This document shows positions 4,033 to 48,051 of a stretch of DNA of 64,000 nt, in pieces. How positions within the stretch are numbered: the first letter of the stretch is position 1; the number at the start of each line of letters is the position of its first letter. Position numbers and translations under genes: made by a program. Under the pieces are notes generated by a model, which worked only from the letters and a program-made list of their open reading frames with translations, did no database searches and was not told where the DNA came from. The DNA is from a virus, in the IMG/VR virus record IMGVR_UViG_3300045988_171958, positions 160,001-224,000 of that record; one strand, given 5' to 3'.

Positions 4033-4320
4033 ATGGAAAAGACTTGGAAAGAACTATTAGGTTCTAGATGGGATAAGTTGTTGAAACTTAAAAGAGAATC
4101 AACAGATCCTTATGTAAAAGATTTCAGATGTCCAGAATGCAATACATTAGATACTAATCATGTAATTGGTTGGTGTGATAGTGGAGATATTGGATTGATG
4201 ATGATAAATGAATGTCCTAGATGTGGTACAAAATACCGTTTTCATGGTACTACTACAGGAAGATGGAATCTTGATTCATTTATTGGTGATTTGTATACTC
4301 AATTATCTGTACAGAAATAA
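4033..4320 (+). CDS. zinc-ribbon protein (95 aa)
   Basis: CPEC...CPRC cysteine pairs. Confidence 0.55.
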   Translation: MEKTWKELLGSRWDKLLKLKRESTDPYVKDFRCPECNTLDTNHVIGWCDSGDIGLMMINECPRCGTKYRFHGTTTGRWNLDSFIGDLYTQLSVQK

Positions 4321-7564: not shown

Positions 7565-7972
7565 ATGAAAAACTTAACGGAATACATAACAGAAGCAGGA
7601 TTTGATTCTAATGTTCAAAAGGCAAAAAATAGAGAAATTATCAATAAGTATTTTACTGATTTTACTATTTCTGCGGCATTTCCTATCAAGAGACAGAAGA
7701 ACTATAAGAAATATTTTGACTATATGTATCGTTGTGAAATTTCTAAGAAAGAAGAAATTGATAAATTCTATGATGCATTATGCAAAATGTATGATGAAAC
7801 TGGCCAAGAATATAAGCAAAATGATATTGATAGAAGAAAGGAAATTGACAAGAATCAATGGAATTCTAGCCTTGAATTGACTAAGGAACTTGCAAAGACT
7901 ATGGGTGTTCCAGTGGATAGCATGCCAGTCCAATCATTATCATTTAGTATACGAACAAATCCAGATTTTTAA
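7565..7972 (+). CDS. hypothetical protein with CTS-like N-terminus (135 aa)
   Basis: N-terminus MKNLTEYITE|A resembles the T4 capsid targeting sequence MKTYQEFIAE. Confidence 0.6.
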   Translation: MKNLTEYITEAGFDSNVQKAKNREIINKYFTDFTISAAFPIKRQKNYKKYFDYMYRCEISKKEEIDKFYDALCKMYDETGQEYKQNDIDRRKEIDKNQWNSSLELTKELAKTMGVPVDSMPVQSLSFSIRTNPDF

Positions 7973-7989
7973 ATAAAGAATTTGATATT

Positions 7990-8412
7990 ATGAAGAGCTT
8001 AACAAAATGCGTTGATGAAAGTTGTCAACAGATGACATCATATATGATAAATGAAGCCAAGACTAAAGGAGAGGTTTATAAATATGAAGAGGCTAAAGAT
8101 AATGATAATCCTTCAAAATTCAAAGATAGAATTCAGCTTATTGGACATGAAGGAAAATGGATGAGAGAAAACTTTGGCCCTATCTATATCGAAATGGTGA
8201 CAAATTTGGCTAGAAAGTCAAAAGATCAATTCCTTGCTGATTGCGATACTACAATCAAAGCTTATAACCAAAAAGCAAAATGGTGTGAGATACTCGCATG
8301 GGATCAAGATGAAAATGACTTTGTACAGTTTGCAGCAACTGGTAGAGGTACTGAAATGTGGCATCCTGACTTCATTGAAAATAATCAAGAATTTCATAGA
8401 CTATTCAGATAA
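7990..8412 (+). CDS. hypothetical protein with CTS-like N-terminus (140 aa)
   Basis: N-terminus MKSLTKCVDE|S. Confidence 0.6.
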   Translation: MKSLTKCVDESCQQMTSYMINEAKTKGEVYKYEEAKDNDNPSKFKDRIQLIGHEGKWMRENFGPIYIEMVTNLARKSKDQFLADCDTTIKAYNQKAKWCEILAWDQDENDFVQFAATGRGTEMWHPDFIENNQEFHRLFR

Positions 8413-8414
8413 CT

Positions 8415-9023
8415 ATGGAAAAGAAAGATTGTAATATTATGATTGGTAGATTTATGCCATTTCATAAAGGTCATGCTAGTGTACTTCAAGCTTTATATAA
8501 AGAAAACGGTTATCCTTGTGTAGTATGTTGTGTTACAAATACTAAATTTGATGCAAAGCATCCATTTTCAGACGATTTGATAGAAAAGGAATTTGATACT
8601 TGCTTGAAGGGTGAAGATTATTACCTCGATAAGATAATGATTAAGTCAGCTGCTATTGATAAAGTCGGTGAAGAATTAGCAAAGAAAGGCTATGGGGCTC
8701 ATTTATGGGGTTGTGGCACCGATAGAGAGAAGCAGTATCAAAGAATGGCTACTAACAAGAAGTACTTGACTGATTTTCCTGATGACTTTAAGTTATTTGT
8801 TGTAAAGAGAGATGAACAGTCATCTAATGTTGATGGTATATCAGCAACTAAAGTAAGACAAGCTATTAAAGATGATGATAAGGCTGCATTTGTAAAGATG
8901 ATGCCAGATGGTGCACAGAAATTGTTCAATGAGTTTAAAGAAGAACTTAGTAAAGTGAATGAAAGTAAATGTTGTCACCTCGGTGAATATATAAGTAATG
9001 AAAACTATTTTGATATCGAGTAA
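8415..9023 (+). CDS. cytidylyltransferase-fold nucleotidyltransferase, NMN adenylyltransferase-like (202 aa)
   Basis: GRFMPFHKGH (HxGH motif) and ISATKVRQAI (ISxTxxR motif). Confidence 0.7.
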   Translation: MEKKDCNIMIGRFMPFHKGHASVLQALYKENGYPCVVCCVTNTKFDAKHPFSDDLIEKEFDTCLKGEDYYLDKIMIKSAAIDKVGEELAKKGYGAHLWGCGTDREKQYQRMATNKKYLTDFPDDFKLFVVKRDEQSSNVDGISATKVRQAIKDDDKAAFVKMMPDGAQKLFNEFKEELSKVNESKCCHLGEYISNENYFDIE

Positions 9024-10129
9024 TGATTAATTTAAAACAATATGTAGAAATAGTGGAATCTATGTTTACAAAAGCTGATTGGGATAAGCATGATGGAAAG
9101 TATCAAAAGGGAATTGTATCAAAAATTTTATCAGGAGAACCTATATATTTAGGAAAAGATTCCAATGGTGATACTTGGGTTTGTAAAAATATAGATAAAG
9201 CTAAAGAACTTTTTAAGGATGTTGATTCGATGGATTCACCAGATGAGTTCAATAAAGCTATGTCTGAACTAGATGGGCCATTATGGACCAAGATATTTAA
9301 GGGTCAAGTTTCTGGGTATATGAAAGGTGTAGATAGTGGCAATGCAGGTAATAGATTTGAACAAGAATATTTAGACAGTATACATTCATATATCCCAAAA
9401 CTAGAAGAAATTACAGGTAAAAACCTAAATAATTATGAAGCTACTAGAGTTGGTGGAGATAATTTGAAAAGACCATTGCAATTTGAAGGTAATTTATTTA
9501 CTTTAGGATTAAGTCAAGGATGTAAAACAGTAGGTGATAGTGTTGCAGATATAAAATTGAAGAAAGGAAATGATACTATAAATTTAAGTTTGAAAAGAGG
9601 TAATTTAGTATCATTCATAAATACAGGTATATTGAAAATATTTACTGCTGCTTCTTTTGATAAATTTAAAGACAATGGAACTTATGATCCTGGAAAAGAT
9701 GCAGAATCAATTCTTGATGCATTTGGAATAGATAAGAATAAATTTGCCTATACATTTACTCATTATGATGGAAAAACTCCTGTAGACGATTTTAAGATTG
9801 ATAACACTGATATAATGAAGAAGAATAATGATTTTAAGAAATTTATGGATAGTGTTATTGGTTATGACTATATCATGGTGCATAAATTAGGTAAAGATAT
9901 ACATTATGTAGATTTGTCAACTAAAAAAGATAGAGATAATTTGATTTCTAATTTAAAAAGGTCTACTATATATTATGGAGGAAAACAAGGTAAAGGAAAA
10001 CGTGTAGATATTGAAATGGAATTTGAAAATATTACTATAAAATTTAATTTCAGAACAAAATTTGCTGGCAAAATATATCCTTCATATTTACAAGCAGATT
10101 ATAAAATAAATCCATCATTTTATAAATAA
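9023..10129 (+). CDS. hypothetical protein with CTS-like N-terminus (368 aa); possible nuclease
   Basis: N-terminus MINLKQYVEIVE|S. GDSVADIKLKK could be a D..(D/E)xK core, which is weak evidence. Confidence 0.6.
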   Translation: MINLKQYVEIVESMFTKADWDKHDGKYQKGIVSKILSGEPIYLGKDSNGDTWVCKNIDKAKELFKDVDSMDSPDEFNKAMSELDGPLWTKIFKGQVSGYMKGVDSGNAGNRFEQEYLDSIHSYIPKLEEITGKNLNNYEATRVGGDNLKRPLQFEGNLFTLGLSQGCKTVGDSVADIKLKKGNDTINLSLKRGNLVSFINTGILKIFTAASFDKFKDNGTYDPGKDAESILDAFGIDKNKFAYTFTHYDGKTPVDDFKIDNTDIMKKNNDFKKFMDSVIGYDYIMVHKLGKDIHYVDLSTKKDRDNLISNLKRSTIYYGGKQGKGKRVDIEMEFENITIKFNFRTKFAGKIYPSYLQADYKINPSFYK

Positions 10130-11350
10130 ATGTTAAATTTAACACAATATGTACAAATCTTTGAAGGAGGAATGAGTAATCACATGTCAAGACCTTATGA
10201 TTTCCCTGAACTTACCTTAAAAGATTTAAGAGAAATAGTATTGTCAGTATTTGGCTATTCTGATCCAGTCGAATTTACAGAGAAGTTAGATGGTACTAAT
10301 ATTCAGGCATCTATGAATAATCAGAATGAAGTGATATTCATAAGAAATAAAGGTGACTTGAATTCTGAACGCGGTGGCATGTCAGTAGAAGATATGGCTG
10401 AAAAATGGAAAGATAAACCAGGTGTACAAAAAACATTTGTTTCTGCTGGTAAGATATTAGAAAGAATATTCAAAAGAATAGGTAGTAATTTCTTCAATCC
10501 AGATCCTAATACTAGATTATTTGCAAATTGTGAATGTATTGTTGCTGGTAAAACAAATATCATGCCATATATTGATGATAGTGTTGATTTTCATAATATC
10601 TGGGTATACAAAAAAGAAGGTGATGAATGGAAAAAGGATAAAGTTACTAGAGATGGATTAGATACTATAGAAAAAGCTATAGATAAAGATGATAAGGCTC
10701 AGCTTACTCCTAAATTGATAATGAAGGTAAATGACCAATCAAGAAAAATAGCTACTAAATGGTGTGATGAACTAAACAAACTTTGGAAACAAGAAGGATT
10801 AGGTGAAGATGATACATTACAAACTTGGGAACAATCTAGATTTAAGAAGATTGCACCAGAATGGATGACTGATGAAGATGGAGCAATATTCAGAAGATGG
10901 TTCCTTATGGATAAGTCAGTAAATATGAGAATATTGAAAAAGACTTATAAAGATCATGTTGATGAATTAGCAGAACTTGATAAAAAAGGTTATAAGAAAT
11001 ATGTAAGTGATGTAATGGGACCTATTGATAAGATGTTCATCAATCTAGGTACTGATGCAATAAATATGATACAAGGACTTACTAATTCTATAACTGATGA
11101 GCAAGCAAAGAAAGTAAAGAATGAACTTATATCAGATTTGAATACAGTAATAGATAAAGTAAACAAATCTGATGATATGGAATTAAAAGCAAAGCTTGCA
11201 TTAGAATTGTCAAGATTAGGAGATATGAATACAAATATTCATGATACTGAAGGTATTGTGTTTACTTGGAAAGGTAGAATGATGAAACTTACATCAGGAT
11301 TTGGTCCTGCAAATCAAATAATTAATTTACAATATAAATTAAATAAATAA
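10130..11350 (+). CDS. ligase-superfamily nucleotidyltransferase (RNA-ligase-like) with CTS-like N-terminus (406 aa)
   Basis: N-terminus MLNLTQYVQIFE|G; FTEKLDGTNI (KxDG motif I); LFANCECIV (motif III-like); TEGIVFTWKGRMMKLT (EGxV / KxK-like). Motif spacing is atypical. Confidence 0.5.
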   Translation: MLNLTQYVQIFEGGMSNHMSRPYDFPELTLKDLREIVLSVFGYSDPVEFTEKLDGTNIQASMNNQNEVIFIRNKGDLNSERGGMSVEDMAEKWKDKPGVQKTFVSAGKILERIFKRIGSNFFNPDPNTRLFANCECIVAGKTNIMPYIDDSVDFHNIWVYKKEGDEWKKDKVTRDGLDTIEKAIDKDDKAQLTPKLIMKVNDQSRKIATKWCDELNKLWKQEGLGEDDTLQTWEQSRFKKIAPEWMTDEDGAIFRRWFLMDKSVNMRILKKTYKDHVDELAELDKKGYKKYVSDVMGPIDKMFINLGTDAINMIQGLTNSITDEQAKKVKNELISDLNTVIDKVNKSDDMELKAKLALELSRLGDMNTNIHDTEGIVFTWKGRMMKLTSGFGPANQIINLQYKLNK

Positions 11351-11757: not shown

Positions 11758-13251
11758 ATGGCTACAGGATTATGCTACACTCAGAGTGGTAATGTTAAGA
11801 GATATGAAACGGATCAATGGCATGGATTTGCAACTACAGGTAAACCAGTATTAAGTGCATATGGGTTACCTGTAAATAATTTCAATATGGTCACCTGGAT
11901 ATTTAATTCAAATTACCATAAAAATGATCCTGTTGTTTTAAATGATACTTATTTTAATTATAGTATGAATAAAACATTATTTACAATTACTAAAGAACCA
12001 TCATCTACAAGTTATAAATATGAAGTAAGTTATACTAATTTTATTGATGATAATTATATTAATGATCTTAAACAACATATTATTGATAATTTTAATATCC
12101 AAACAAAACAAAATATAGATGATTATAATTTGACATATTATAATCCAAATATACTTAGTACTTATGAAACGAGTTATTCAATAATTCAATCCACATATAT
12201 ATTTAATTCTATAAAAGTATATTATCATAATATAGGTAATTATATTAATGTTAATAAATCTTCCTTATTCAGTGATAATTTTAATGGGTTTATAATTTAC
12301 AAACCAAAGCCTTTAAAATTATTTAATATATCTAGTGTATTATTTTCACCAGTGGTTTATATTAATGATGATACAAATGAAAAAATTTTTAACAAGGAGA
12401 TACAAATACAAAGTTTATGGACATTACCAATTCCTAAATTTGATGTGATTTTTACTACTGAATATAATAATGAAACTTATAAATACACACATAAAGATTA
12501 TAAATTTTCAAATAATCCTCCATTCCAAGATTTAAATATAAAAGTTAGTGATAATAAGAAATTAGGAAACAGTTTTATGGTAACATTACCTCCAATAGTC
12601 ATAAATGAAGATAATGGCAAAACAATAGAATATAATGGAACTAATCTACCAAATTTGAAAAATTTTACTTCTAATTTGGATTCAATAACACTATCAAATG
12701 GTAAAATTCTTTGGGCTCAAACTAATTATATGTATGAGTTAGTAGTAAAAGGATCTTTCCAAAAATCATACGAAATAATTAAATATGATACAAATTATGT
12801 TTTACATCAAATAAACCCAATAAGTTATGTTCAATTATTTATTAAAGATTTACCTGATTATTATTTAATAAATGTTAACTATGAAAGAAATATTAATGAC
12901 CCAATAAATGCTAGTAATGTAAGTATAATTTGGAATGTTAAATCTTATAAAAATGGTAAAATTTTACAATCATATATACCAGGAGGAATAATAGATGATT
13001 TAAATTTTTCAATTGAATTTGATTTCTCTGTGATTAATTATTCATATAGAGAAAATGAGATAATTAATGAATCTTCAACTGAAGAAGGTAAATTTTCAGC
13101 AGATATAAATGTATCATATCCTTTAAATAATTTATATGATTTTACAAGTGATTTAGATTATGAAGGTAATGGATATGATTATGTAGCAAGTATTGAACAA
13201 TTTACATACCCAAACAAGAGTCATTCTGGTATAGAAATTAAATGGAAATAA
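11758..13251 (+). CDS. Asn/Tyr/Ile-rich protein (497 aa), function unknown
   Basis: Long uninterrupted ORF in the most AT-rich part of the window; followed by a bidirectional palindrome. Confidence 0.6.
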   Translation: MATGLCYTQSGNVKRYETDQWHGFATTGKPVLSAYGLPVNNFNMVTWIFNSNYHKNDPVVLNDTYFNYSMNKTLFTITKEPSSTSYKYEVSYTNFIDDNYINDLKQHIIDNFNIQTKQNIDDYNLTYYNPNILSTYETSYSIIQSTYIFNSIKVYYHNIGNYINVNKSSLFSDNFNGFIIYKPKPLKLFNISSVLFSPVVYINDDTNEKIFNKEIQIQSLWTLPIPKFDVIFTTEYNNETYKYTHKDYKFSNNPPFQDLNIKVSDNKKLGNSFMVTLPPIVINEDNGKTIEYNGTNLPNLKNFTSNLDSITLSNGKILWAQTNYMYELVVKGSFQKSYEIIKYDTNYVLHQINPISYVQLFIKDLPDYYLINVNYERNINDPINASNVSIIWNVKSYKNGKILQSYIPGGIIDDLNFSIEFDFSVINYSYRENEIINESSTEEGKFSADINVSYPLNNLYDFTSDLDYEGNGYDYVASIEQFTYPNKSHSGIEIKWK

Positions 13252-13266
13252 GATATTATAAATAAA

Positions 13267-13304
13267 ATAATGAAATTATGGGTCTAGACCCATAATTTCA
13301 TTAT
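13267..13304. terminator. 38-bp palindrome between convergent genes (bidirectional terminator candidate)
   Basis: AATGAAATTATGGGTCT|AGACCCATAATTTCATT, plus two flanking complementary bases on each side. Confidence 0.65.
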
Positions 13305-13922: not shown

Positions 13923-14732
13923 TTAAACTTCATATAATTTCTTTATATATTTAGCAGGTATGTTATTCTTTACAAAATAACAATGATCTTCTTTATCATA
14001 CATGTGATCTCTCCAGATATCAAAGTTCACTGTATACAAGTCTACTAACAACACTACTGTATTTTCCCAATCTAAATGATTCTCATCATCTGATCCTTTT
14101 CTTGCTTGCTTAAACTCTCTTGCAAATTTCAATATACTTTCTTTACTTTCTTTTCCTTTTAATTGTATTCTAGAACTATATTTTCTATATCCATCCTTTC
14201 CATCATGACCTCTCATTCTGAGTCCAGTCTCCTTTATTTTTTCATAATTTTTCTTAGTAGTAACATGTATGAATTTGTTATTAAACAATTTCATTGTTTC
14301 ATTATTACATTTGTCAGGATATTCAGGTTCTAAAATAGTATATCCATTCCACATATCAGTCTTCACATAATTGAAGAATGTACATATATCTAAGAACTTA
14401 CTTGAATTAACATAATATAATTGTTTGTTGTTAAACTTTACACCTACCAATCCATGCTTGTTAGATCTATTGATAGTGCAAATCTCATATATATTGTCTT
14501 TATATTCTTTTTCTATATGATTCACCAAACTATCTACATCATGAGATTTTAATGTCTCATATAGATAAGAATTAAGTTCAAATGTATGATTAATGTATGA
14601 TTCTTGTATATCTTTTGGTATGTCTTCTATAGATTCACCAAAATAAGTAGCTAACTCATTCAATCTATTTTGGCAGAACAACTTATCGTGTAAGTTGTTC
14701 TGACTTTCTATATATTCTTTTAAACTTATCAT
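13923..14732 (-). CDS. hypothetical protein with CTS-like N-terminus (269 aa)
   Basis: N-terminus MISLKEYIE|S. Confidence 0.6.
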   Translation of the reverse strand: MISLKEYIESQNNLHDKLFCQNRLNELATYFGESIEDIPKDIQESYINHTFELNSYLYETLKSHDVDSLVNHIEKEYKDNIYEICTINRSNKHGLVGVKFNNKQLYYVNSSKFLDICTFFNYVKTDMWNGYTILEPEYPDKCNNETMKLFNNKFIHVTTKKNYEKIKETGLRMRGHDGKDGYRKYSSRIQLKGKESKESILKFAREFKQARKGSDDENHLDWENTVVLLVDLYTVNFDIWRDHMYDKEDHCYFVKNNIPAKYIKKLYEV

Positions 14733-24483: not shown

Positions 24484-24753
24484 ATGAAATCATTATTAGA
24501 ATCAATCACAACGGTTAATGAATCGGGGTTTGATGGAGTTATTGACAATATCAAAGCTTTGTTCTGTTATGATCAGCTTAGCAATATAGAAAAGGATGAG
24601 GTTGCAGAACTATTCAAACCTTATGGCGATGGTGAAATATATGGGACTATCATGAAATTTTCAAAAAATACTGATCTTTCAAGATCAGCTAAATCACAAT
24701 TTAATAAATCAATGAGGATGTGTAAGGATATATATGAAGCATTGAAATCTTAA
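24484..24753 (+). CDS. hypothetical protein with CTS-like N-terminus (89 aa)
   Basis: N-terminus MKSLLESITTVNE|S. Confidence 0.55.
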   Translation: MKSLLESITTVNESGFDGVIDNIKALFCYDQLSNIEKDEVAELFKPYGDGEIYGTIMKFSKNTDLSRSAKSQFNKSMRMCKDIYEALKS

Positions 24754-38527: not shown

Positions 38528-39211
38528 CTAGTTGCTAGCTTCACCAGTGCTCATGTCCTCGTCCCAGAAGTCACTTCTAAATGTAACTGCTAATTTTGCA
38601 GGTTCATTATCAGTATAGTTCAATGTATCAAGACCAGTAACACTTGTAATCATTGTGTCATGGAATACATAGGCTCTGTAAATTGTACCATCTCTATTAG
38701 CTTCCGCAATTCTCATTACATCAGCAACATAGTCAGCCTTCAATGTACGAGTACCATCAGCAAGGTCATAACCAAGTTTTTCCCAAGCCTTGAAGATACG
38801 GAGCAACCAAGCATCTGACTTAGAACGGATGTTCAAATTAAAGTTCACTGTAACTTCAGCATAAGTGTTATCCAATGTTGGGTTTAAGAAGCTCACATCA
38901 ACACCGAAGAATTTCTGTGAACCAGCTTGTACTGTCTTCTGCAATGCATCCAAACCAGCAACATCAGTAACTTGTTCTGTCATAGTAGCGGCATCAGCAC
39001 CAAACATACCTTGCAACTGTGTAGGAAGTGTGAATGATACTTCAAACACAGCACGGTTCATTGGATCATGACGATTAGCACCAGCCTTAGTATTCATCAA
39101 ATGAGGAAGATGTGTCTTGCCATCATGGCCACGAGAAGCAAAATCACCTGTAGTTGCAGGAACTGATCCACCCCAATAAATGTTAGGCTTATTTTCTGTT
39201 ATTTTCTGCAT
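38528..39211 (-). CDS. tail tube protein (T4 gp19-like, 227 aa)
   Basis: Lies directly downstream of the sheath gene. NRAVFEVSFTLP and C-terminal KLAVTFRSDFWDE parallel T4 gp19 NLFQVEISYLG / TFEVTLALDYWE. Confidence 0.7.
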   Translation of the reverse strand: MQKITENKPNIYWGGSVPATTGDFASRGHDGKTHLPHLMNTKAGANRHDPMNRAVFEVSFTLPTQLQGMFGADAATMTEQVTDVAGLDALQKTVQAGSQKFFGVDVSFLNPTLDNTYAEVTVNFNLNIRSKSDAWLLRIFKAWEKLGYDLADGTRTLKADYVADVMRIAEANRDGTIYRAYVFHDTMITSVTGLDTLNYTDNEPAKLAVTFRSDFWDEDMSTGEASN

Positions 39212-43330: not shown

Positions 43331-44488
43331 ATGAAAACAAATCATGATAAAATTATAGTAAAAATTATTTGTGGACAAAATAAAGGAAATATTTCAAGAT
43401 TTAAAATATCTAAAATAAAAGATAATTATCCAAATATATTAAATTATATAAAAACTAGATATAAAGATAGTAATTCAATAAATGAAACTATTAATAGAAT
43501 GAAATTTGGTGGTCCAGAAATAGTACCAAAATGTCCAGTTTGTGGAAAACCAACAATTTATAAATATAAAAATATATATACATTATATTGTTCTCATGAA
43601 TGTGCTTATAAATCTAAAGAAGTATATGAAAAGAAAAAACAAACTTCATTAAAACATTATGGAGTATCTCACCCAATGAGATCAAAAGAAATAAAAGAAA
43701 AAGTAAAAAATACTAATATTGAAATTTATGGTGCAAAAACATTTGCTGAATCAAAACTTGGTAAAAAATATTTTGAGGAAAATAAAGAATTATTAGTTAA
43801 AAAAACAGAAGAAGGTATATTTAAAAAATATGGTGTTAAAAGTTATCAACAATCAAAAGAATATCAAAATAAAAAAGATGAAATATTAAAAAAAAGAAAA
43901 GAAACAAATTTAAAAAGATTTGGAGAAACTTCTTATTCAAAAACCAATGAATGGAAACAATCTTTTCAAAATAAAAAGCAAGAGATGTTGGAAAAAATGA
44001 AAGAAACATGCCTTAAAAAATATGGAAGAGAATGGTATTTTCAAACAGAAGATTCTAAACAAAAAAATTATATTACACAAAAGAAAAATGGTACATTTGG
44101 AAAATCTAAACCTGAAGTTGAACTTAAAAATTTTCTATTAAATTATTTTCCTGATTTAATATATCAATATAAATCAAAAGAATATCCATGGAAATGTGAT
44201 TATTATATTCCTACATATAAACTTTTTATAGAATTACAAGGTTCTTGGTGTCATGGAAATAAACCTTATGATCCAAATGATGAAGAATGCATTGAATTAG
44301 TTAATTTATGGAAATCAAAGCCAAATGGATTTTATAAAAGAGCATTATATGGATATACAATAGCTGATGTTAAAAAACGTAATTGGGTAAAAACTCATAA
44401 ATTAAATTTTATTGAAATTTTTGATTATTCTGATTTTAATAAAATTCTTAATAATATTAATACATATATCAAAATGCATCAAATGTAA
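43331..44488 (+). mobile_element. homing-endonuclease-like gene, family copy 3 (385 aa), opposite strand to the structural genes
   Basis: CPVCGKP..CSHEC, multiple (K/H/I)YG repeats, YPWKCDYYIP..FIELQGSWCHGN. Confidence 0.7.
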
Positions 44489-44566: not shown

Positions 44567-46387
44567 TTAGAGCAAACCGAAGTCAGATGAAACAGTAAAT
44601 GTGTAATAACTTTTCTCTGGGAAGAAACCGATATCAGCAATAGCGTAACGGCTATTTACAAGCATCTTAGGTGCCATCGTGCCTTCCGCAATGAGCTGCA
44701 TTTGGTCCGCAAGGATATAAGGCATAAATACTACACCTGGTTCGTTACCAGAACCCTTACGACCAACACAAATACGAGTATCGTTCCAATCCATGTAAGG
44801 ATCTACATAAACCTGAAGACCTGCAATAGTACCAGCTTTGTAGAGGTTAGCAGTTACAGACTGTGTGAATGTATTCTGCATTGGAGCAACTACATACTGA
44901 GCGCAATCTTGAAGTGCTGTAACAACTTGAGTATTTGTAACAACCCAGTTAGCTGGACCACGTCTATTAGTTACCTGAATGAGGTTAGATGCTGCAAGTA
45001 CACGAGAAGCGATACGACGTTGACGAGTATGAAGGTTTTCAGCAGATGTGTTAACTTCTGAGTTCTTGATAGTACCCCAAGTAGCACGAAGATCGTTACC
45101 GAAGATATCTTTGTACTCCTTGATATTCATAGGAAGGTTAGCGAAGTCCTTATCAGCTGTACCCATGTAGAGGTTCAAGTCAACACCTTGATAGTTCTTC
45201 AAGTTCAATGCATTAGTAACACCAAGACGGAATACATGCTCAAGAATACGAGCGTTGATAGACTGGGTGATTTCGTTCTGCATTGCTTCCATAATCTTAG
45301 AAACAGCATTAACGCCGTACAATGGAAGATCCTGAAGTTGCTGACGAGTTACAGCACCTGTTACTTCATAACTACCTACTGTAATCCACTTAGAGAATAG
45401 ACGAAGACCGATAGTGTTACCAGTACCAGTTTCATTCTCAGCACGTGTCATAGGTTCCTTCTTACCAGTAGCGAAGTTAGCAAAACCATCGATGAAGTCA
45501 ACCATTGTCTGAGCGAAGTCAACCTGTACGGCTTTCTTTTCATCATCTGTAAAGTCAGCAATCATATCTGCAGTATCTGCAGTAAATACCGTCAAACCAT
45601 TAGCACCAGTACCAGTAAATGCCTCATTGATAGAGATATCCGTATCATCCTTCTTTGAATCGATAACCTGTACAAGAAGACCACCATCCATACGACCGAA
45701 GCCCTTGAAAATACCTCTTACAGTACCAGCAGCAGTTGTAAATACAAGCTGTGCATCTTCCTTCATTTCAGCATGCTTACGAAGCTTAGCAATTGCAGTA
45801 CCAGGGAGCAATACCTTGAAGTACATTGGCTTGTTCTCACGACCAGCACCAACACCATCAAGACCAGCAATTTCATTTCTACGACCCATCTTACCACCAG
45901 CATAAGGGAAGTCCATATAACTCAAGAGAGCCCAAGGACCCTTAGTAGGAATAGTTGGAACAAGCTCAAGACCAATAGTCATCAAAGCTACGTTCAAAGC
46001 CATAGGAAGTGTAGAAACTGGAATATCACCACTACCAGGAGTCTGATTGAAGAATGCACCTGGATTGATACCAGCTGTAGAACTACCACGACCATCAGCA
46101 CCGTGAGGACCACTAGGAGCGGCAATATTACCCATACCAAGAGTATTAGCTGGAGTAGCATACATAGGACCAACACCAGGACCACCACCAGGAGCACCAG
46201 CTGGAACTGTAACAGGGCTAACACCAGCAGGAGTAGCTACTGCATGAGCACCAAGGTTAGCTTCAAACATTGCGTGTGTTTGGGCATAATCAGATACCCA
46301 ATTCAACTTTTCATTATCTTCAACATGGAACTGCTCAGTAAGCATCTTAGTCCACATTGCTTTGTTCTGATTTTCTGTAATCAACAT
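44567..46387 (-). CDS. major capsid protein (T4 gp23-like, 606 aa)
   Basis: Blocks parallel to T4 gp23: TRQQLQDLPLYGVNAVSKIMEAMQNEI, GPANWVVTNTQVVTALQD, AGLQVYVDPYMDWNDTRICVGRKG..GVVFMPYI. Confidence 0.88.
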   Translation of the reverse strand: MLITENQNKAMWTKMLTEQFHVEDNEKLNWVSDYAQTHAMFEANLGAHAVATPAGVSPVTVPAGAPGGGPGVGPMYATPANTLGMGNIAAPSGPHGADGRGSSTAGINPGAFFNQTPGSGDIPVSTLPMALNVALMTIGLELVPTIPTKGPWALLSYMDFPYAGGKMGRRNEIAGLDGVGAGRENKPMYFKVLLPGTAIAKLRKHAEMKEDAQLVFTTAAGTVRGIFKGFGRMDGGLLVQVIDSKKDDTDISINEAFTGTGANGLTVFTADTADMIADFTDDEKKAVQVDFAQTMVDFIDGFANFATGKKEPMTRAENETGTGNTIGLRLFSKWITVGSYEVTGAVTRQQLQDLPLYGVNAVSKIMEAMQNEITQSINARILEHVFRLGVTNALNLKNYQGVDLNLYMGTADKDFANLPMNIKEYKDIFGNDLRATWGTIKNSEVNTSAENLHTRQRRIASRVLAASNLIQVTNRRGPANWVVTNTQVVTALQDCAQYVVAPMQNTFTQSVTANLYKAGTIAGLQVYVDPYMDWNDTRICVGRKGSGNEPGVVFMPYILADQMQLIAEGTMAPKMLVNSRYAIADIGFFPEKSYYTFTVSSDFGLL

Positions 46388-46473: not shown

Positions 46474-48051
46474 TTAACGTAAAGCCATCATCTGAGCAGC
46501 GATACTAGACATATAGCTATCTACAGGGTTTTGGTTATGATTCTCGTTGATATTCTGTACTGGCTTCTCATTGAAATCAATACCAGCCCAGAAGCTTTCC
46601 ATTACACCAGTCTTAGTAAAGTCATAAGCACGAGACTGTAGAGCTATTTCATCCTTCTTTTGCTCGCTCAATCCTTCGAACATTGGACGGTACTCATTTG
46701 GCATGTTTACAATAGCATAGCAAGTTGCATACTTACCAAGATTCTTCTCTTGCTGTTCCTTCAACATCTGAATCTCATTTTCTTTAGAACCTTGACCACT
46801 TTCAAGCATCTCAAGCATTCTATCGATATTGTCGAACTTGTCATTAGACTTAGATTCGATATATTCAGAAACATTCTCATTAATCTTGTTACTCAATTCT
46901 TTACCAAATTGCTCAGTAATCCAATTCTGTAGTTCATCAGAGTAATTTTCAACAATCCACTTCTGAACCTCAGGAGAATACTGCTCTACAATCCACTTCT
47001 GAACCTCAGATGAATAATTTTCAACAATCCACTTCTGAACCTCAGGTGAATACTGCTCTACAATCCACTTCTGAACCTCAGGAGAATAATGTTCTGTTAC
47101 CCACTTCTGAACTTCTGGAGAATATTGCTCTACTACCCACTTCTGTACTTCAGGAGCAAACTGTTCACATACCCAATTCTGAACAACTGGAGCAAACTCT
47201 TCACTTACCCATTTCTGTACACCATTTGCCATTTCTTGGCTAAATTCAGGTTTGAATTCTTCCTTAATCCAAGATTCAATAGCATCATAGTTAGTAGGCT
47301 TGAATTCAGAAACTTGTTCAGTAAGAGCTTGGATTTGCTCATCCTTTTCGTTGATAGATTCCTTAGCTACATGGAGTTCTGCCTCAAGGCTTTCTACCTT
47401 TTCACTAAGCTTATCAACTGCTTCTTTCAAGTCTTTCATATTTGTTTTATCTTTGTCTTTATCTTTGTTCTTATCTGGATCATCATTCTTGTCGTCTTCT
47501 CCTTCAAGAATTACTGCACACATGGATTCATTCAATGATTCAAACTTCTGATTTTCATCTAGATGTAGACTTGCTTGTGAGAAACCAGGTGTACCAACCA
47601 AGTCATAAGTCTTAAGCATAGTAAGTGTTACATTACCAGATTCATCGATAGAACCAAGAGCACGAGAACTGATATACAAAGGTACACCAGCTTCTACAAT
47701 AGCCTTAGCATTACGACCCTTCTCAGTATCAAGCAGTACAACAGTACCAGTAATAGTACCATCTTCATGCATCTGAACACTTTCGATCTTATGGCTTACA
47801 TTGTTTAAGTTTATGTTCATTGAATTTGGATGTTCAAGTTCACCAAGACAACCTTCTGTTGCTATTGTCTTTTGCAAACTTTCTACCATCTGACCATAAT
47901 TCTCCTTACTATATATTCGATTGTTTCCATTCTTAATACCACAAACACCGAATACACCAGAAAGGCGAATTTCATTGTTGTCAAGAGACTCCTTAACCTT
48001 CATTGCAGTTATGTTGCCAAGTGTCTCATATACTAGACATTTCTTTGCCAT
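46474..48051 (-). CDS. prohead protease (T4 gp21-like) fused to an acidic / coiled-coil / tandem-repeat scaffold-like C-terminal region (525 aa)
   Basis: NNRIYSKENY...CLGELEHPNS...ISSRALGS parallels T4 gp21 NKRLYPKRIL..ALGELNHPP..VSSRGLGS. C-terminal half carries nine 12-aa repeats. Confidence 0.85.
   Translation of the reverse strand: MAKKCLVYETLGNITAMKVKESLDNNEIRLSGVFGVCGIKNGNNRIYSKENYGQMVESLQKTIATEGCLGELEHPNSMNINLNNVSHKIESVQMHEDGTITGTVVLLDTEKGRNAKAIVEAGVPLYISSRALGSIDESGNVTLTMLKTYDLVGTPGFSQASLHLDENQKFESLNESMCAVILEGEDDKNDDPDKNKDKDKDKTNMKDLKEAVDKLSEKVESLEAELHVAKESINEKDEQIQALTEQVSEFKPTNYDAIESWIKEEFKPEFSQEMANGVQKWVSEEFAPVVQNWVCEQFAPEVQKWVVEQYSPEVQKWVTEHYSPEVQKWIVEQYSPEVQKWIVENYSSEVQKWIVEQYSPEVQKWIVENYSDELQNWITEQFGKELSNKINENVSEYIESKSNDKFDNIDRMLEMLESGQGSKENEIQMLKEQQEKNLGKYATCYAIVNMPNEYRPMFEGLSEQKKDEIALQSRAYDFTKTGVMESFWAGIDFNEKPVQNINENHNQNPVDSYMSSIAAQMMALR
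46921..47244. repeat. nine tandem 36-bp repeats inside the protease-scaffold gene
   Basis: Units start at 46921, 46957, 46993, 47029, 47065, 47101, 47137, 47173 and 47209 (CCACTTCTGAACCTCAGG...). They encode EVQKWIVEQYSP-type repeats. Confidence 0.9.

Follow-up and report, generated by a model that had tools for sequence, protein, structure and literature searches.

In a 64,000-nucleotide (nt) stretch of viral DNA (positions 160,001 to 224,000 of the IMG/VR virus record IMGVR_UViG_3300045988_171958; the whole stretch is hereafter called the window), six genes whose products have no similarity to one another begin with a common N-terminal leader of about ten residues. This leader is objectively similar to the capsid-targeting sequence (CTS) of phage T4, and it co-occurs with a bona fide prohead protease of the Peptidase S77 family. 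We read the shared N-terminus as a T4-type CTS, cleaved off by the gp21-type protease, the six proteins being packaged into the head and probably injected, and give this reading a probability of roughly 65%.

The window has a GC content of ~30%, and its gene set comprises 81 non-overlapping open reading frames (ORFs) of at least 50 aa, with 19,869 residues in total. The six N-termini, which had been pointed out in the first-pass annotation of the sequence, were all found at the expected places in the ORF translations, and 6 of the 81 genes thus start with the consensus M-x-[NS]-L-x-[EQK]-[YCS]-[IV]...E. Position 4 is Leu and position 8 is Ile or Val in every leader, while position 7 is Tyr in four of them and Cys or Ser in the remaining two; past the leader, the cargo proteins share no mutual similarity. 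The strict motif [NS]L.[EQK][YCS][IV] has no internal match in the window proteome, and a looser form of it occurs internally at a frequency of 4.5e-4, which corresponds to ~0.04 N-terminal matches expected by chance. A position-specific scoring matrix (PSSM) covering residues 2–8 and trained on 15 leaders, none of them from the window, was scanned over the 833 Met codons of the window that are followed by at least 30 codons. The six leaders occupy ranks 1, 2, 3, 5, 6 and 7 with scores of 7.1–15.2, compared with a mean of −10.3 and a standard deviation of 5.7 for all Met codons, and the scan of these 833 starts revealed no seventh leader gene. Chance origin of the leader motif is excluded.

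Four of the leader genes lie close together on the plus strand. Cargo gene 1 (7565..7972, +; 135 aa; PSSM rank 2 of 833) carries the leader MKNLTEYITE (nt 7565–7594), with predicted cleavage at E10|A11, and is conserved in L003, L046 and L248 (L numbers are our labels for the contigs and genomes compared). Cargo gene 2 (7990..8412, +; 140 aa; rank 6) starts with MKSLTKCVDE (nt 7990–8019; predicted cleavage E10|S11), in which position 7 is Cys and not aromatic, and its ortholog in L001 and L003 starts with MKSLTKCIDE. The leader of cargo gene 3 (9023..10129, +; 368 aa; phrog_8438; rank 3) is MINLKQYVEIVE (nt 9023–9058), which directly precedes a Ser and in which the sites YVE9 and IVE12|S are stacked. 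Cargo gene 4 (10130..11350, +; 406 aa; rank 5) has the leader MLNLTQYVQIFE (nt 10130–10165; predicted cleavage E12|G13). Cargo gene 5 (13923..14732, −; 269 aa), which holds rank 1, begins with MISLKEYIE (nt 14706–14732; predicted cleavage E9|S10), where Tyr at P3 makes the site non-canonical. Cargo gene 6 (24484..24753, +; 89 aa; rank 7) bears the longer leader MKSLLESITTVNE (nt 24484–24522; predicted cleavage E13|S14), and that of T4 IPI (MKTFKEFTSTTTPV...) is longer as well. An (I/V/L)-x-E ending had been claimed for all of these N-termini; five of the six leaders have it in the form [IV]-x-E, and the leader of 13923–14732 (−) ends in Y-I-E instead.

The likeness to T4 extends to the positions that matter functionally. 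T4 ipIII and ipII begin with MKTYQEFIAE (read from NC_000866; also PMC8442874), the N-termini read from the genome being MKTYQEFIAEASVV for ipIII, MKTYQEFIAEARVG for ipII and MKTFKEFTSTTTPV for ipI. Amber-suppression genetics of the T4 CTS has connected residues 4 and 7 with targeting and residues 8 and 10 with processing (PMC9026906). The cleavage motif of gp21 is L/I-x-E, and Asp at position 10 stops cleavage of the T4 CTS, not its targeting (PMC9026906). A second PSSM, built only from 12 leaders of the clade of the window phage, was scanned over 299 T4 ORFs and placed IPIII, IPII and IPI at ranks 10, 11 and 12, i.e. in the top 4%; the chance that three named proteins all fall in the top 12 of 299 is ~5e-5 by our own calculation. 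As a matrix of the clade's leaders ranks the T4 internal proteins this high, the leaders are measurably CTS-like, and not merely alike by eye.

The best T4 match to the leader PSSM is gp61.1, a 54-aa hypothetical protein (NC_000866 18966–19130, −) that starts with MKTFKEFIKEDMVAGD (MKTFKEFIKE...). Its N-terminus is very near the CTS of IPI and IPIII, and from this resemblance gp61.1 might be an unrecognised packaged protein of T4.

The gp21-type (Peptidase S77) prohead protease is encoded at 46474..48051 (−) and is fused to a scaffold-like C-terminal half, giving a protein of 525 aa. The gp21 homology asserted for this gene at first pass is well founded, since Pfam Peptidase_S77 (PF03420) matches with 42.7 bits against a cut-off of 27, phrog_207 matches over the full length (1.5e-40), and BLASTP aligns the first 138 residues with T4 gp21 (E 2e-8); a PDB sequence search with the protease as a single sequence returned nothing. 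H74 and S128 align with His85 (GELNHP) and Ser140 (VSSRGLGS) of T4 gp21, which we take to be the catalytic residues of the Peptidase S77 family, and the N-terminal element L-[IV]-x-E-T is common to the two enzymes. The protease domain with H74 and S128 comprises residues ~1–180 (nt ~47512–48051, −) and is followed by an acidic/lysine-rich linker (residues ~185–203, −), after which come an invariant internal Met205 (MKDLKEAVDKL..., nt 47439, −) and ~10 tandem copies of the 12-aa repeat xPEVQKW[IV]xE[QN][YF] (residues ~258–385, nt 46897–47280, −). Both the fusion and the repeats are kept in the proteases of all 16 distinct relatives, which have 6–10 repeats of the form APEVQNW[IV]xEE[FY]. Each repeat holds an [IV]-x-E, and the repeats are therefore plausible sites of self-digestion. 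The sequence from Met205, MKDLKEAVDK, is itself leader-like and takes rank 4 of 833 in the leader PSSM, which suggests a nested in-frame scaffold start. Nested starts in protease/scaffold genes are known from lambda (C/Nu3) and herpes simplex virus (UL26/UL26.5). T4 gp22 starts with MLKEQLIAE|A, which echoes the end of the T4 CTS, EFIAE|A.

The major capsid protein (MCP) is of the gp23 type (44567..46387, −; 606 aa; Pfam Gp23, 2e-30). In an alignment of nine relatives, its N-terminal ~42 residues (nt 46262–46387, −) contain the conserved candidate protease sites [ILM]-x-E, namely MLITE|N (ITE5), KMLTE|QF (LTE18) and HAMFE|A at 42 (HEIHE|S in relatives), and are followed by a variable Gly/Pro-rich linker. 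These sites would fit gp23-style processing, with cleavage at the predicted positions. A 227-aa protein without family match (38528–39211, −), which is encoded beside the sheath-like gene and is possibly the tail tube protein, starts with MQKITEN. This start and that of the MCP (MLITEN) resemble the N-terminus of T4 Alt, read from the duplicate alt.-1 (MELITE...), and the same is true of CBB_211 (MSLLEEMFDG) and 121Q gp558 (MSILNEMLDY). In the T4 genome, alt.-1 begins with MELITELFDG and gp24 with MAKINELLRES.

The leader is under selection at the level of the peptide and is modular. Among 18 orthologs of the 368-aa protein, down to 27% identity, L4, [YF]7 and [IVL]8 are retained; E12, directly before the conserved body, does not vary in the 18 sequences, whereas the leader otherwise drifts, and in some of them a second [IL]-x-E lengthens the leader, e.g. 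MKRLNTFINESLINE|VF. Eight orthologs of the 269-aa protein, the most distant of them 42% identical, all have M1, L4 and Y7, with drift at other leader positions, and the orthologs of the 406-aa protein in L002 and L003 (58% identity) retain the leader. The positions that are invariant among orthologs, L4 and the aromatic residue 7, are thus those that mediate targeting experimentally in the T4 CTS. At the DNA level, no relationship exists among the 45-nt stretches that precede the leader genes, and synonymous codons vary among the leaders, so that neither a shared promoter nor a recombined DNA cassette can be the source of the common N-terminus. Two of the leader genes abut or overlap the stop codon of the preceding gene, and hence have no intergenic promoter. 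In the AlphaFold2 (AF2) models of the 269-aa and 368-aa proteins, residues 1–14 are modelled with low confidence as a short helix that stands apart from the fold, as a tag would be expected to do.

Comparison with relatives reveals a rapid exchange of cargo. Among GenBank phages no relatives were found at the DNA level; the MCP shares 28–39% identity with its counterparts in the uncultured 462-kb phage LR756500, Sphingomonas phage PAU, Chryseobacterium phage MA9V, Tenacibaculum phages pT24/PTm1 and Lak phages (~35% for LR756500 and PAU), and the close relatives are IMG/VR contigs of 219–283 kb. When 100 leader-bearing proteins are clustered without their first 14 residues, 47 cargo clusters result, and the cargo differs among relatives with near-identical flanking genes. 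In L001, which is ~97% identical to the window phage, the 269-aa gene is replaced by a leaderless 464-aa gene, and an additional 177-aa gene has the leader MKSLIEYIQE|K. L002 and L003 possess a 184-aa gene with MIGLSQY[VI]NE|S, and in L003 a 516-aa gene (MQSLENYVYIFE|G) occupies the slot of the 368-aa gene of the window. A distant homolog of this 516-aa gene in L002 is without a leader, as are the cyanophage homologs of the 368-aa protein. L113, a 410-kb contig whose MCP is 58% identical to that of the window, carries three leader genes directly upstream of its protease–MCP pair. AT-rich relatives (GC 0.20–0.27) contain tandem arrays of 5–9 leader genes with different proteins downstream of an extended leader, M-x-x-[LI]-x-x-Y-I-[IL]-E-KLHLNK (L012 3220–5909; L035 461–5206; L076 1057–3764 and 12325–13701; L049 20–2485), and the protease of one of these array-bearing relatives is 71% identical to that of the window.

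The same leader is also found on a DUF6267 ligase-like 409-aa protein in L070 and L071 (MLNLKEYIREEK...) and on a 213-aa polynucleotide-kinase/HAD-phosphatase-like protein (phrog_415) in L035 (2203–2844). These sequence matches are hints that RNA/DNA end-repair enzymes may be a recurrent cargo; searches of NCBIfam and Pfam with further cargo from the relatives gave no matches.

The leader was back-translated to the DNA pattern ATGNNNARYTTANNNSARTAYRTNNNNGAA and searched in IMG/VR and in 596 Gb of cellular genomes. For the viral contigs, 98 loci were listed, in which 31 families have the leader at the ORF start and 4 have it internally. A homologue of a T4 core protein or of a window protein lies within a few kb at 59 of the 98 loci, and at ~50 of those 59 the neighbour is from the T4 core set (gp4, gp17, gp18, gp20, uvsX and gp5/6/25 among others). 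The cellular genomes yielded at least 120 matches; among the matches listed, the motif is at the ORF start in 22 families and internal in 39, and several of the ORF-start matches listed are binned phage contigs. The largest leader family is phrog_14802, annotated as 'virion structural protein', whose homologs in the cultured jumbo phages CBB (CBB_210, MNKLQKILTE|L), 121Q (gp557, MNRLQQILTE|K) and Vibrio phage 2.275.O (MKDLNTILTE|S) align from residue 1. Mass spectrometry has identified CBB_210 in virions by 13 peptides, at a coverage of 60.5% (PMC5259590), and PA5oct gp282 is flagged in its record for electrospray ionization tandem mass spectrometry (ESI-MS/MS). Neither the CBB paper (PMC5259590) nor the literature searched contains a description of a CTS-like leader in these jumbo phages, and for phrog_14802 no N-terminal processing has been reported.

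The cargo proteins are of very different size and kind: one is nuclease-like (40 kDa), one ligase-like (45 kDa), a third (31 kDa) belongs to no known family, and the remaining three are small (9–15 kDa). The 368-aa protein had been annotated as a possible nuclease. Its AF2 model, with a predicted local distance difference test (pLDDT) score of 83.6, has its best fold matches in Foldseek with Hjc/RecU (prob ~0.8, E 0.04–0.09, low TM-scores), and the modelled body appears to resemble the PD-(D/E)xK nuclease fold weakly. The invariant residues of the family are E113, D176 and S189-x-K191, where Ser replaces the D/E of (D/E)xK; the annotation as a possible nuclease draws on the weak Hjc/RecU fold match. 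A tentative assignment of the 406-aa protein to the nucleotidyltransferase (ligase-like) superfamily agrees with a conserved KxDG, K52-x-D54-G55 and E374-G375 being invariant, and with a sub-threshold match to Pfam RNA_ligase (19.8 bits, cut-off 27). Cyanophage and IMG homologs of this protein match DUF6267 at 2e-125, and a profile of its ligase family found no meaningful match in PDB. The AF2 model of the 269-aa protein (pLDDT 70.9) has only uncharacterised phage proteins as matches in BFVD, and the family is phage-specific. A guess from motifs, that this protein is a Tpt1/ADP-ribosyltransferase-like analogue of Alt, was rejected, as the model has no significant PDB match and only these uncharacterised proteins in BFVD. 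For the 135-, 140-, 269- and 89-aa cargo proteins, the reported searches of Pfam, PHROG and NCBIfam found no family.

The 368-aa and 406-aa genes belong to a three-gene module (8415–11350, +), the third member of which is a leaderless neighbour (8415..9023, +; 202 aa) identified by family matches as an NMNAT/cytidylyltransferase-like nucleotidyltransferase with a HIGH motif. The module, whose 406-aa member is DUF6267-related, is also present, in another gene order, in the cyanophages S-RSM4 and S-RIM32 (L104 2213–5120; L105 2180–5177). Its possible role is in nucleic-acid repair or modification.

Every computational test run, whether of sequence, key positions, PSSM, protease or modularity, favoured the T4 CTS analogy that the first-pass annotation had drawn, and packaging could proceed as follows. 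The cargo would be made with a leader of ~9–13 residues, M-x-[NS]-L-x-[EQ]-[Y]-[IV]-x-(x-x)-E, of which Leu4 and the aromatic residue 7 would bind the assembling prohead core, i.e. the scaffold half of the protease–scaffold fusion. The MCP shell would then close round the core with the cargo enclosed. On activation, the gp21-type serine protease (H74/S128) would cut after the Glu of [IV]-x-E and free the leader, and would also digest its own repeat-rich scaffold and trim the MCP propeptide. The mature cargo would be kept in the head with the DNA and would enter the host at infection. We infer core binding, cleavage after Glu, retention and injection of the cargo, as well as an early role in takeover or counter-defence; to call the cargo anti-defence proteins is speculation.

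Several observations weigh against packaging and injection. The phage is uncultured and is known here from its genes alone. The isoelectric points predicted for the mature cargo after leader removal are 5.3–8.6, i.e. not basic, whereas the internal proteins of T4 are highly basic (PMC8442874). The Glu of the leader is lost in some orthologs of the 269-aa protein, and the N-terminus of PA5oct gp282 is degenerate (MKSFRDYYDA) and has no Glu. The NMNAT-like member of the three-gene module lacks a leader although its two partners are cargo, and in cyanophages the module lies among genes of replication and nucleotide metabolism without a clear leader, a context that an intracellular role would fit as well. 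The motif also starts cellular families, such as a 246-aa family of Campylobacter concisus and a family of Saccharibacteria, so that a single match, or the motif alone, is no proof of packaging. A PSSM made from 142 scaffold repeats does not single out the leaders, the best of which reaches about the 95th percentile of the null; the idea that the leader mimics one scaffold repeat (E-V-Q-N-W-I-T-E vs N-L-T-E-Y-I-T-E) was therefore rejected, and what is left of the resemblance is a loose [aromatic]-[IV]-x-E. A T4-late-like TATA box stands upstream of three of the six leader genes and two of five structural genes, with ~2.4 expected over the 81 genes, and is suggestive only, the motif having been defined after inspection of the data.

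The main rival explanation, which we regard as improbable though worth serious attention, accepts that the leader targets the prohead core and takes the proteins for assembly or structural parts, some of them perhaps uncleaved, and not for injected effectors. Phrog_14802, the largest leader family, is indeed a conserved virion protein encoded in a structural module beside homologs of gp4, gp17 and gp18, and the putative internal scaffold start MKDLKEAVDK is leader-like. It is also in favour of this explanation that some orthologs have no Glu, and that Asp10 stops processing of the T4 CTS and not targeting (PMC9026906). Against it stands the character of the window cargo, which is non-core, dispensable and swapped between near-identical relatives, as is untypical of assembly factors, and which includes two proteins that look like nucleic-acid enzymes; moreover, the CTS-bearing internal proteins and Alt of T4 are injected (PMC3012670, PMC5694885).

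Less likely than such prohead targeting without injection or cleavage is a function unrelated to the capsid, in which the motif would be a translation-initiation or other mRNA feature, an oligomerisation or membrane helix, or a tag for a protease or chaperone of host or phage. An mRNA signal disagrees with the variation of synonymous codons. The start of some cellular families with the same motif, the partial echo MAN[IV]xQL without cleavage site in the cyanophage ligase-like homologs, and the replication and nucleotide-metabolism genes around the cyanophage module would all suit a function of this kind. They are opposed by the fit of the leader to the T4 CTS, both by position and by PSSM, by the strong tie of the viral matches to ORF starts and to T4-type contigs, by the leader genes that adjoin the protease–MCP pair in L113, and by the presence in virions of a family with the same leader format. 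Finally, the view that an AT-rich genome, whose ~30% GC favours codons for K, N, I, L, Y and E, has produced the resemblance by composition alone, or that it is a functionless remnant of ancestry or recombination, is effectively refuted by the lack of internal motif matches in 19,869 residues, the separation of the six leaders from the other 827 Met starts by more than 3 standard deviations in the leader PSSM, the dissimilarity of the cargo beyond the leader and the conservation of the key positions in orthologs at 40–58% identity.

If the leader is a CTS, a wider and more tentative proposition is that the T4 CTS is an ancient, sequence-recognisable 'zip code' used across the T4 superfamily, in T4, Rak2-like jumbo phages, marine T4-likes and the relatives of PAU and Lak megaphages; we hold this to be possible rather than probable. 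Were it true, the injected proteome of uncultured huge phages would be readable from their genomes, the arsenals of the present clade would be large and fast-turning-over, with arrays of up to ~9 genes, and nuclease-like, ligase-like and polynucleotide-kinase-like enzymes would be pre-packaged to act before phage gene expression. Proteins that are injected with phage DNA act ahead of phage gene expression, and those of T4 include the anti-restriction inhibitor IPI* and Alt, a modifier of host RNA polymerase. A leader that marks injected proteins throughout the superfamily would permit candidates for first-strike effectors to be listed from metagenomic genomes alone, and the turnover of cargo between relatives to be tracked as a readout of the arms race with host defences. 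In non-model phages it could also serve to load foreign proteins into capsids, a use for which T4 has set the precedent.

Other features of the window lie around the leader genes. A 497-aa ORF (11758–13251, +) rich in Asn, Tyr and Ile coincides with the lowest-GC stretch of the window (24%) and has no family match; the versions in relatives have 549 and 567 aa, and a hairpin terminator with a 17-bp stem follows at 13267–13304. The gene at 43331–44488 (+), between the MCP gene and the 1323-aa sheath-like gene, encodes a Cys-rich and Lys-rich protein of 385 aa. At this slot relatives have different genes of 333–408 aa on either strand, or none (L106–L110 7850–9100), much as for a mobile insertion, and the gene may encode a homing endonuclease. 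Sigma-70 promoters and terminators, scanned for around the leader-gene cluster, are no commoner there than in shuffled sequences. A promoter-like motif, TTTGAAATTT-N12-22-TCTATATTTTA, precedes 12 of the 81 genes, none of them structural or leader-bearing, which start at 4033, 6026, 15622 (−), 16685, 27485, 32708, 36569, 52460 (−), 53618, 54692, 58304 and 59468. It probably represents an early or middle promoter class of the window phage.

For phages other than the T-even, P1 and phiKZ-like ones, no description of leaders like these was found in the literature searched, and the system is most usefully compared with those three types. In P1, the N-terminal signal of DarB suffices for loading into the capsid and delivers anti-restriction proteins (PMC9024508). 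This signal takes more than 9 and up to 30 residues, shows no consensus among the Dar proteins, involves no gp21-type cleavage (PMC9024508) and has no sequence relationship to the window leaders. In phiKZ-like phages (phiKZ gp175, 201phi2-1, SPN3US gp245), a gp21-related protease cuts head proteins after Glu, the propeptides are presumed to direct proteins into the prohead, and many proteins are packaged and ejected (PMC5694885, PMC9026906). The phiKZ-like propeptides are mostly longer than 100 residues with the motif S/A/G-x-E, and they are not known to have a short leader in common (PMC5694885); the window leaders differ from this type in having 9–13 residues, in being common to different cargo and in carrying Ile or Val at P3. 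The phrog_14802 proteins of Rak2-like and PA5oct-like jumbo phages have the same N-terminal format as the window cargo, with MKSLKQYITE in marine relatives. Unlike that cargo, they constitute one conserved family of the structural module, which is not variable and has no member in the window.

The closest counterpart is T4. In both phages a leader of ~10 residues runs from Met1 in the form M-K-x-[hydrophobic]4-x-E6-[aromatic]7-[I/V]8-x-E10 (MKNLTEYITE vs MKTYQEFIAE), the leaders sharing with the T4 CTS K2 (three of six), E6, the aromatic residue 7, I/V at 8 and E10, and a small residue follows the Glu. Like T4, the window phage has a homologous S77 protease and an MCP of the gp23 type. The differences are that the window consensus has Leu at position 4 (Tyr/Phe in T4) and Asn or Ser at position 3 (Thr in T4), that several leaders of the window phage have 12–13 residues with a second [IV]-x-E, that the cargo includes large enzyme-like proteins (40–45 kDa) that are not basic, and that the protease and a scaffold of tandem 12-aa repeats form one protein, where T4 has separate gp21 and gp22; the window phage is also of a distant lineage. 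The kind of system is thus the known one of the T4 CTS, to which the window phage and its relatives add a leader of notable phylogenetic breadth, large cargo arrays and cargo that is enzyme-like. The T-even internal proteins are diverse and share only the conserved CTS (PMC3012670); as in T4, the leader of the window phage and its relatives is borne by unrelated, dispensable proteins whose repertoire changes between relatives, and this turnover parallels that of the T-even internal-protein loci (PMC3012670) on a larger scale.

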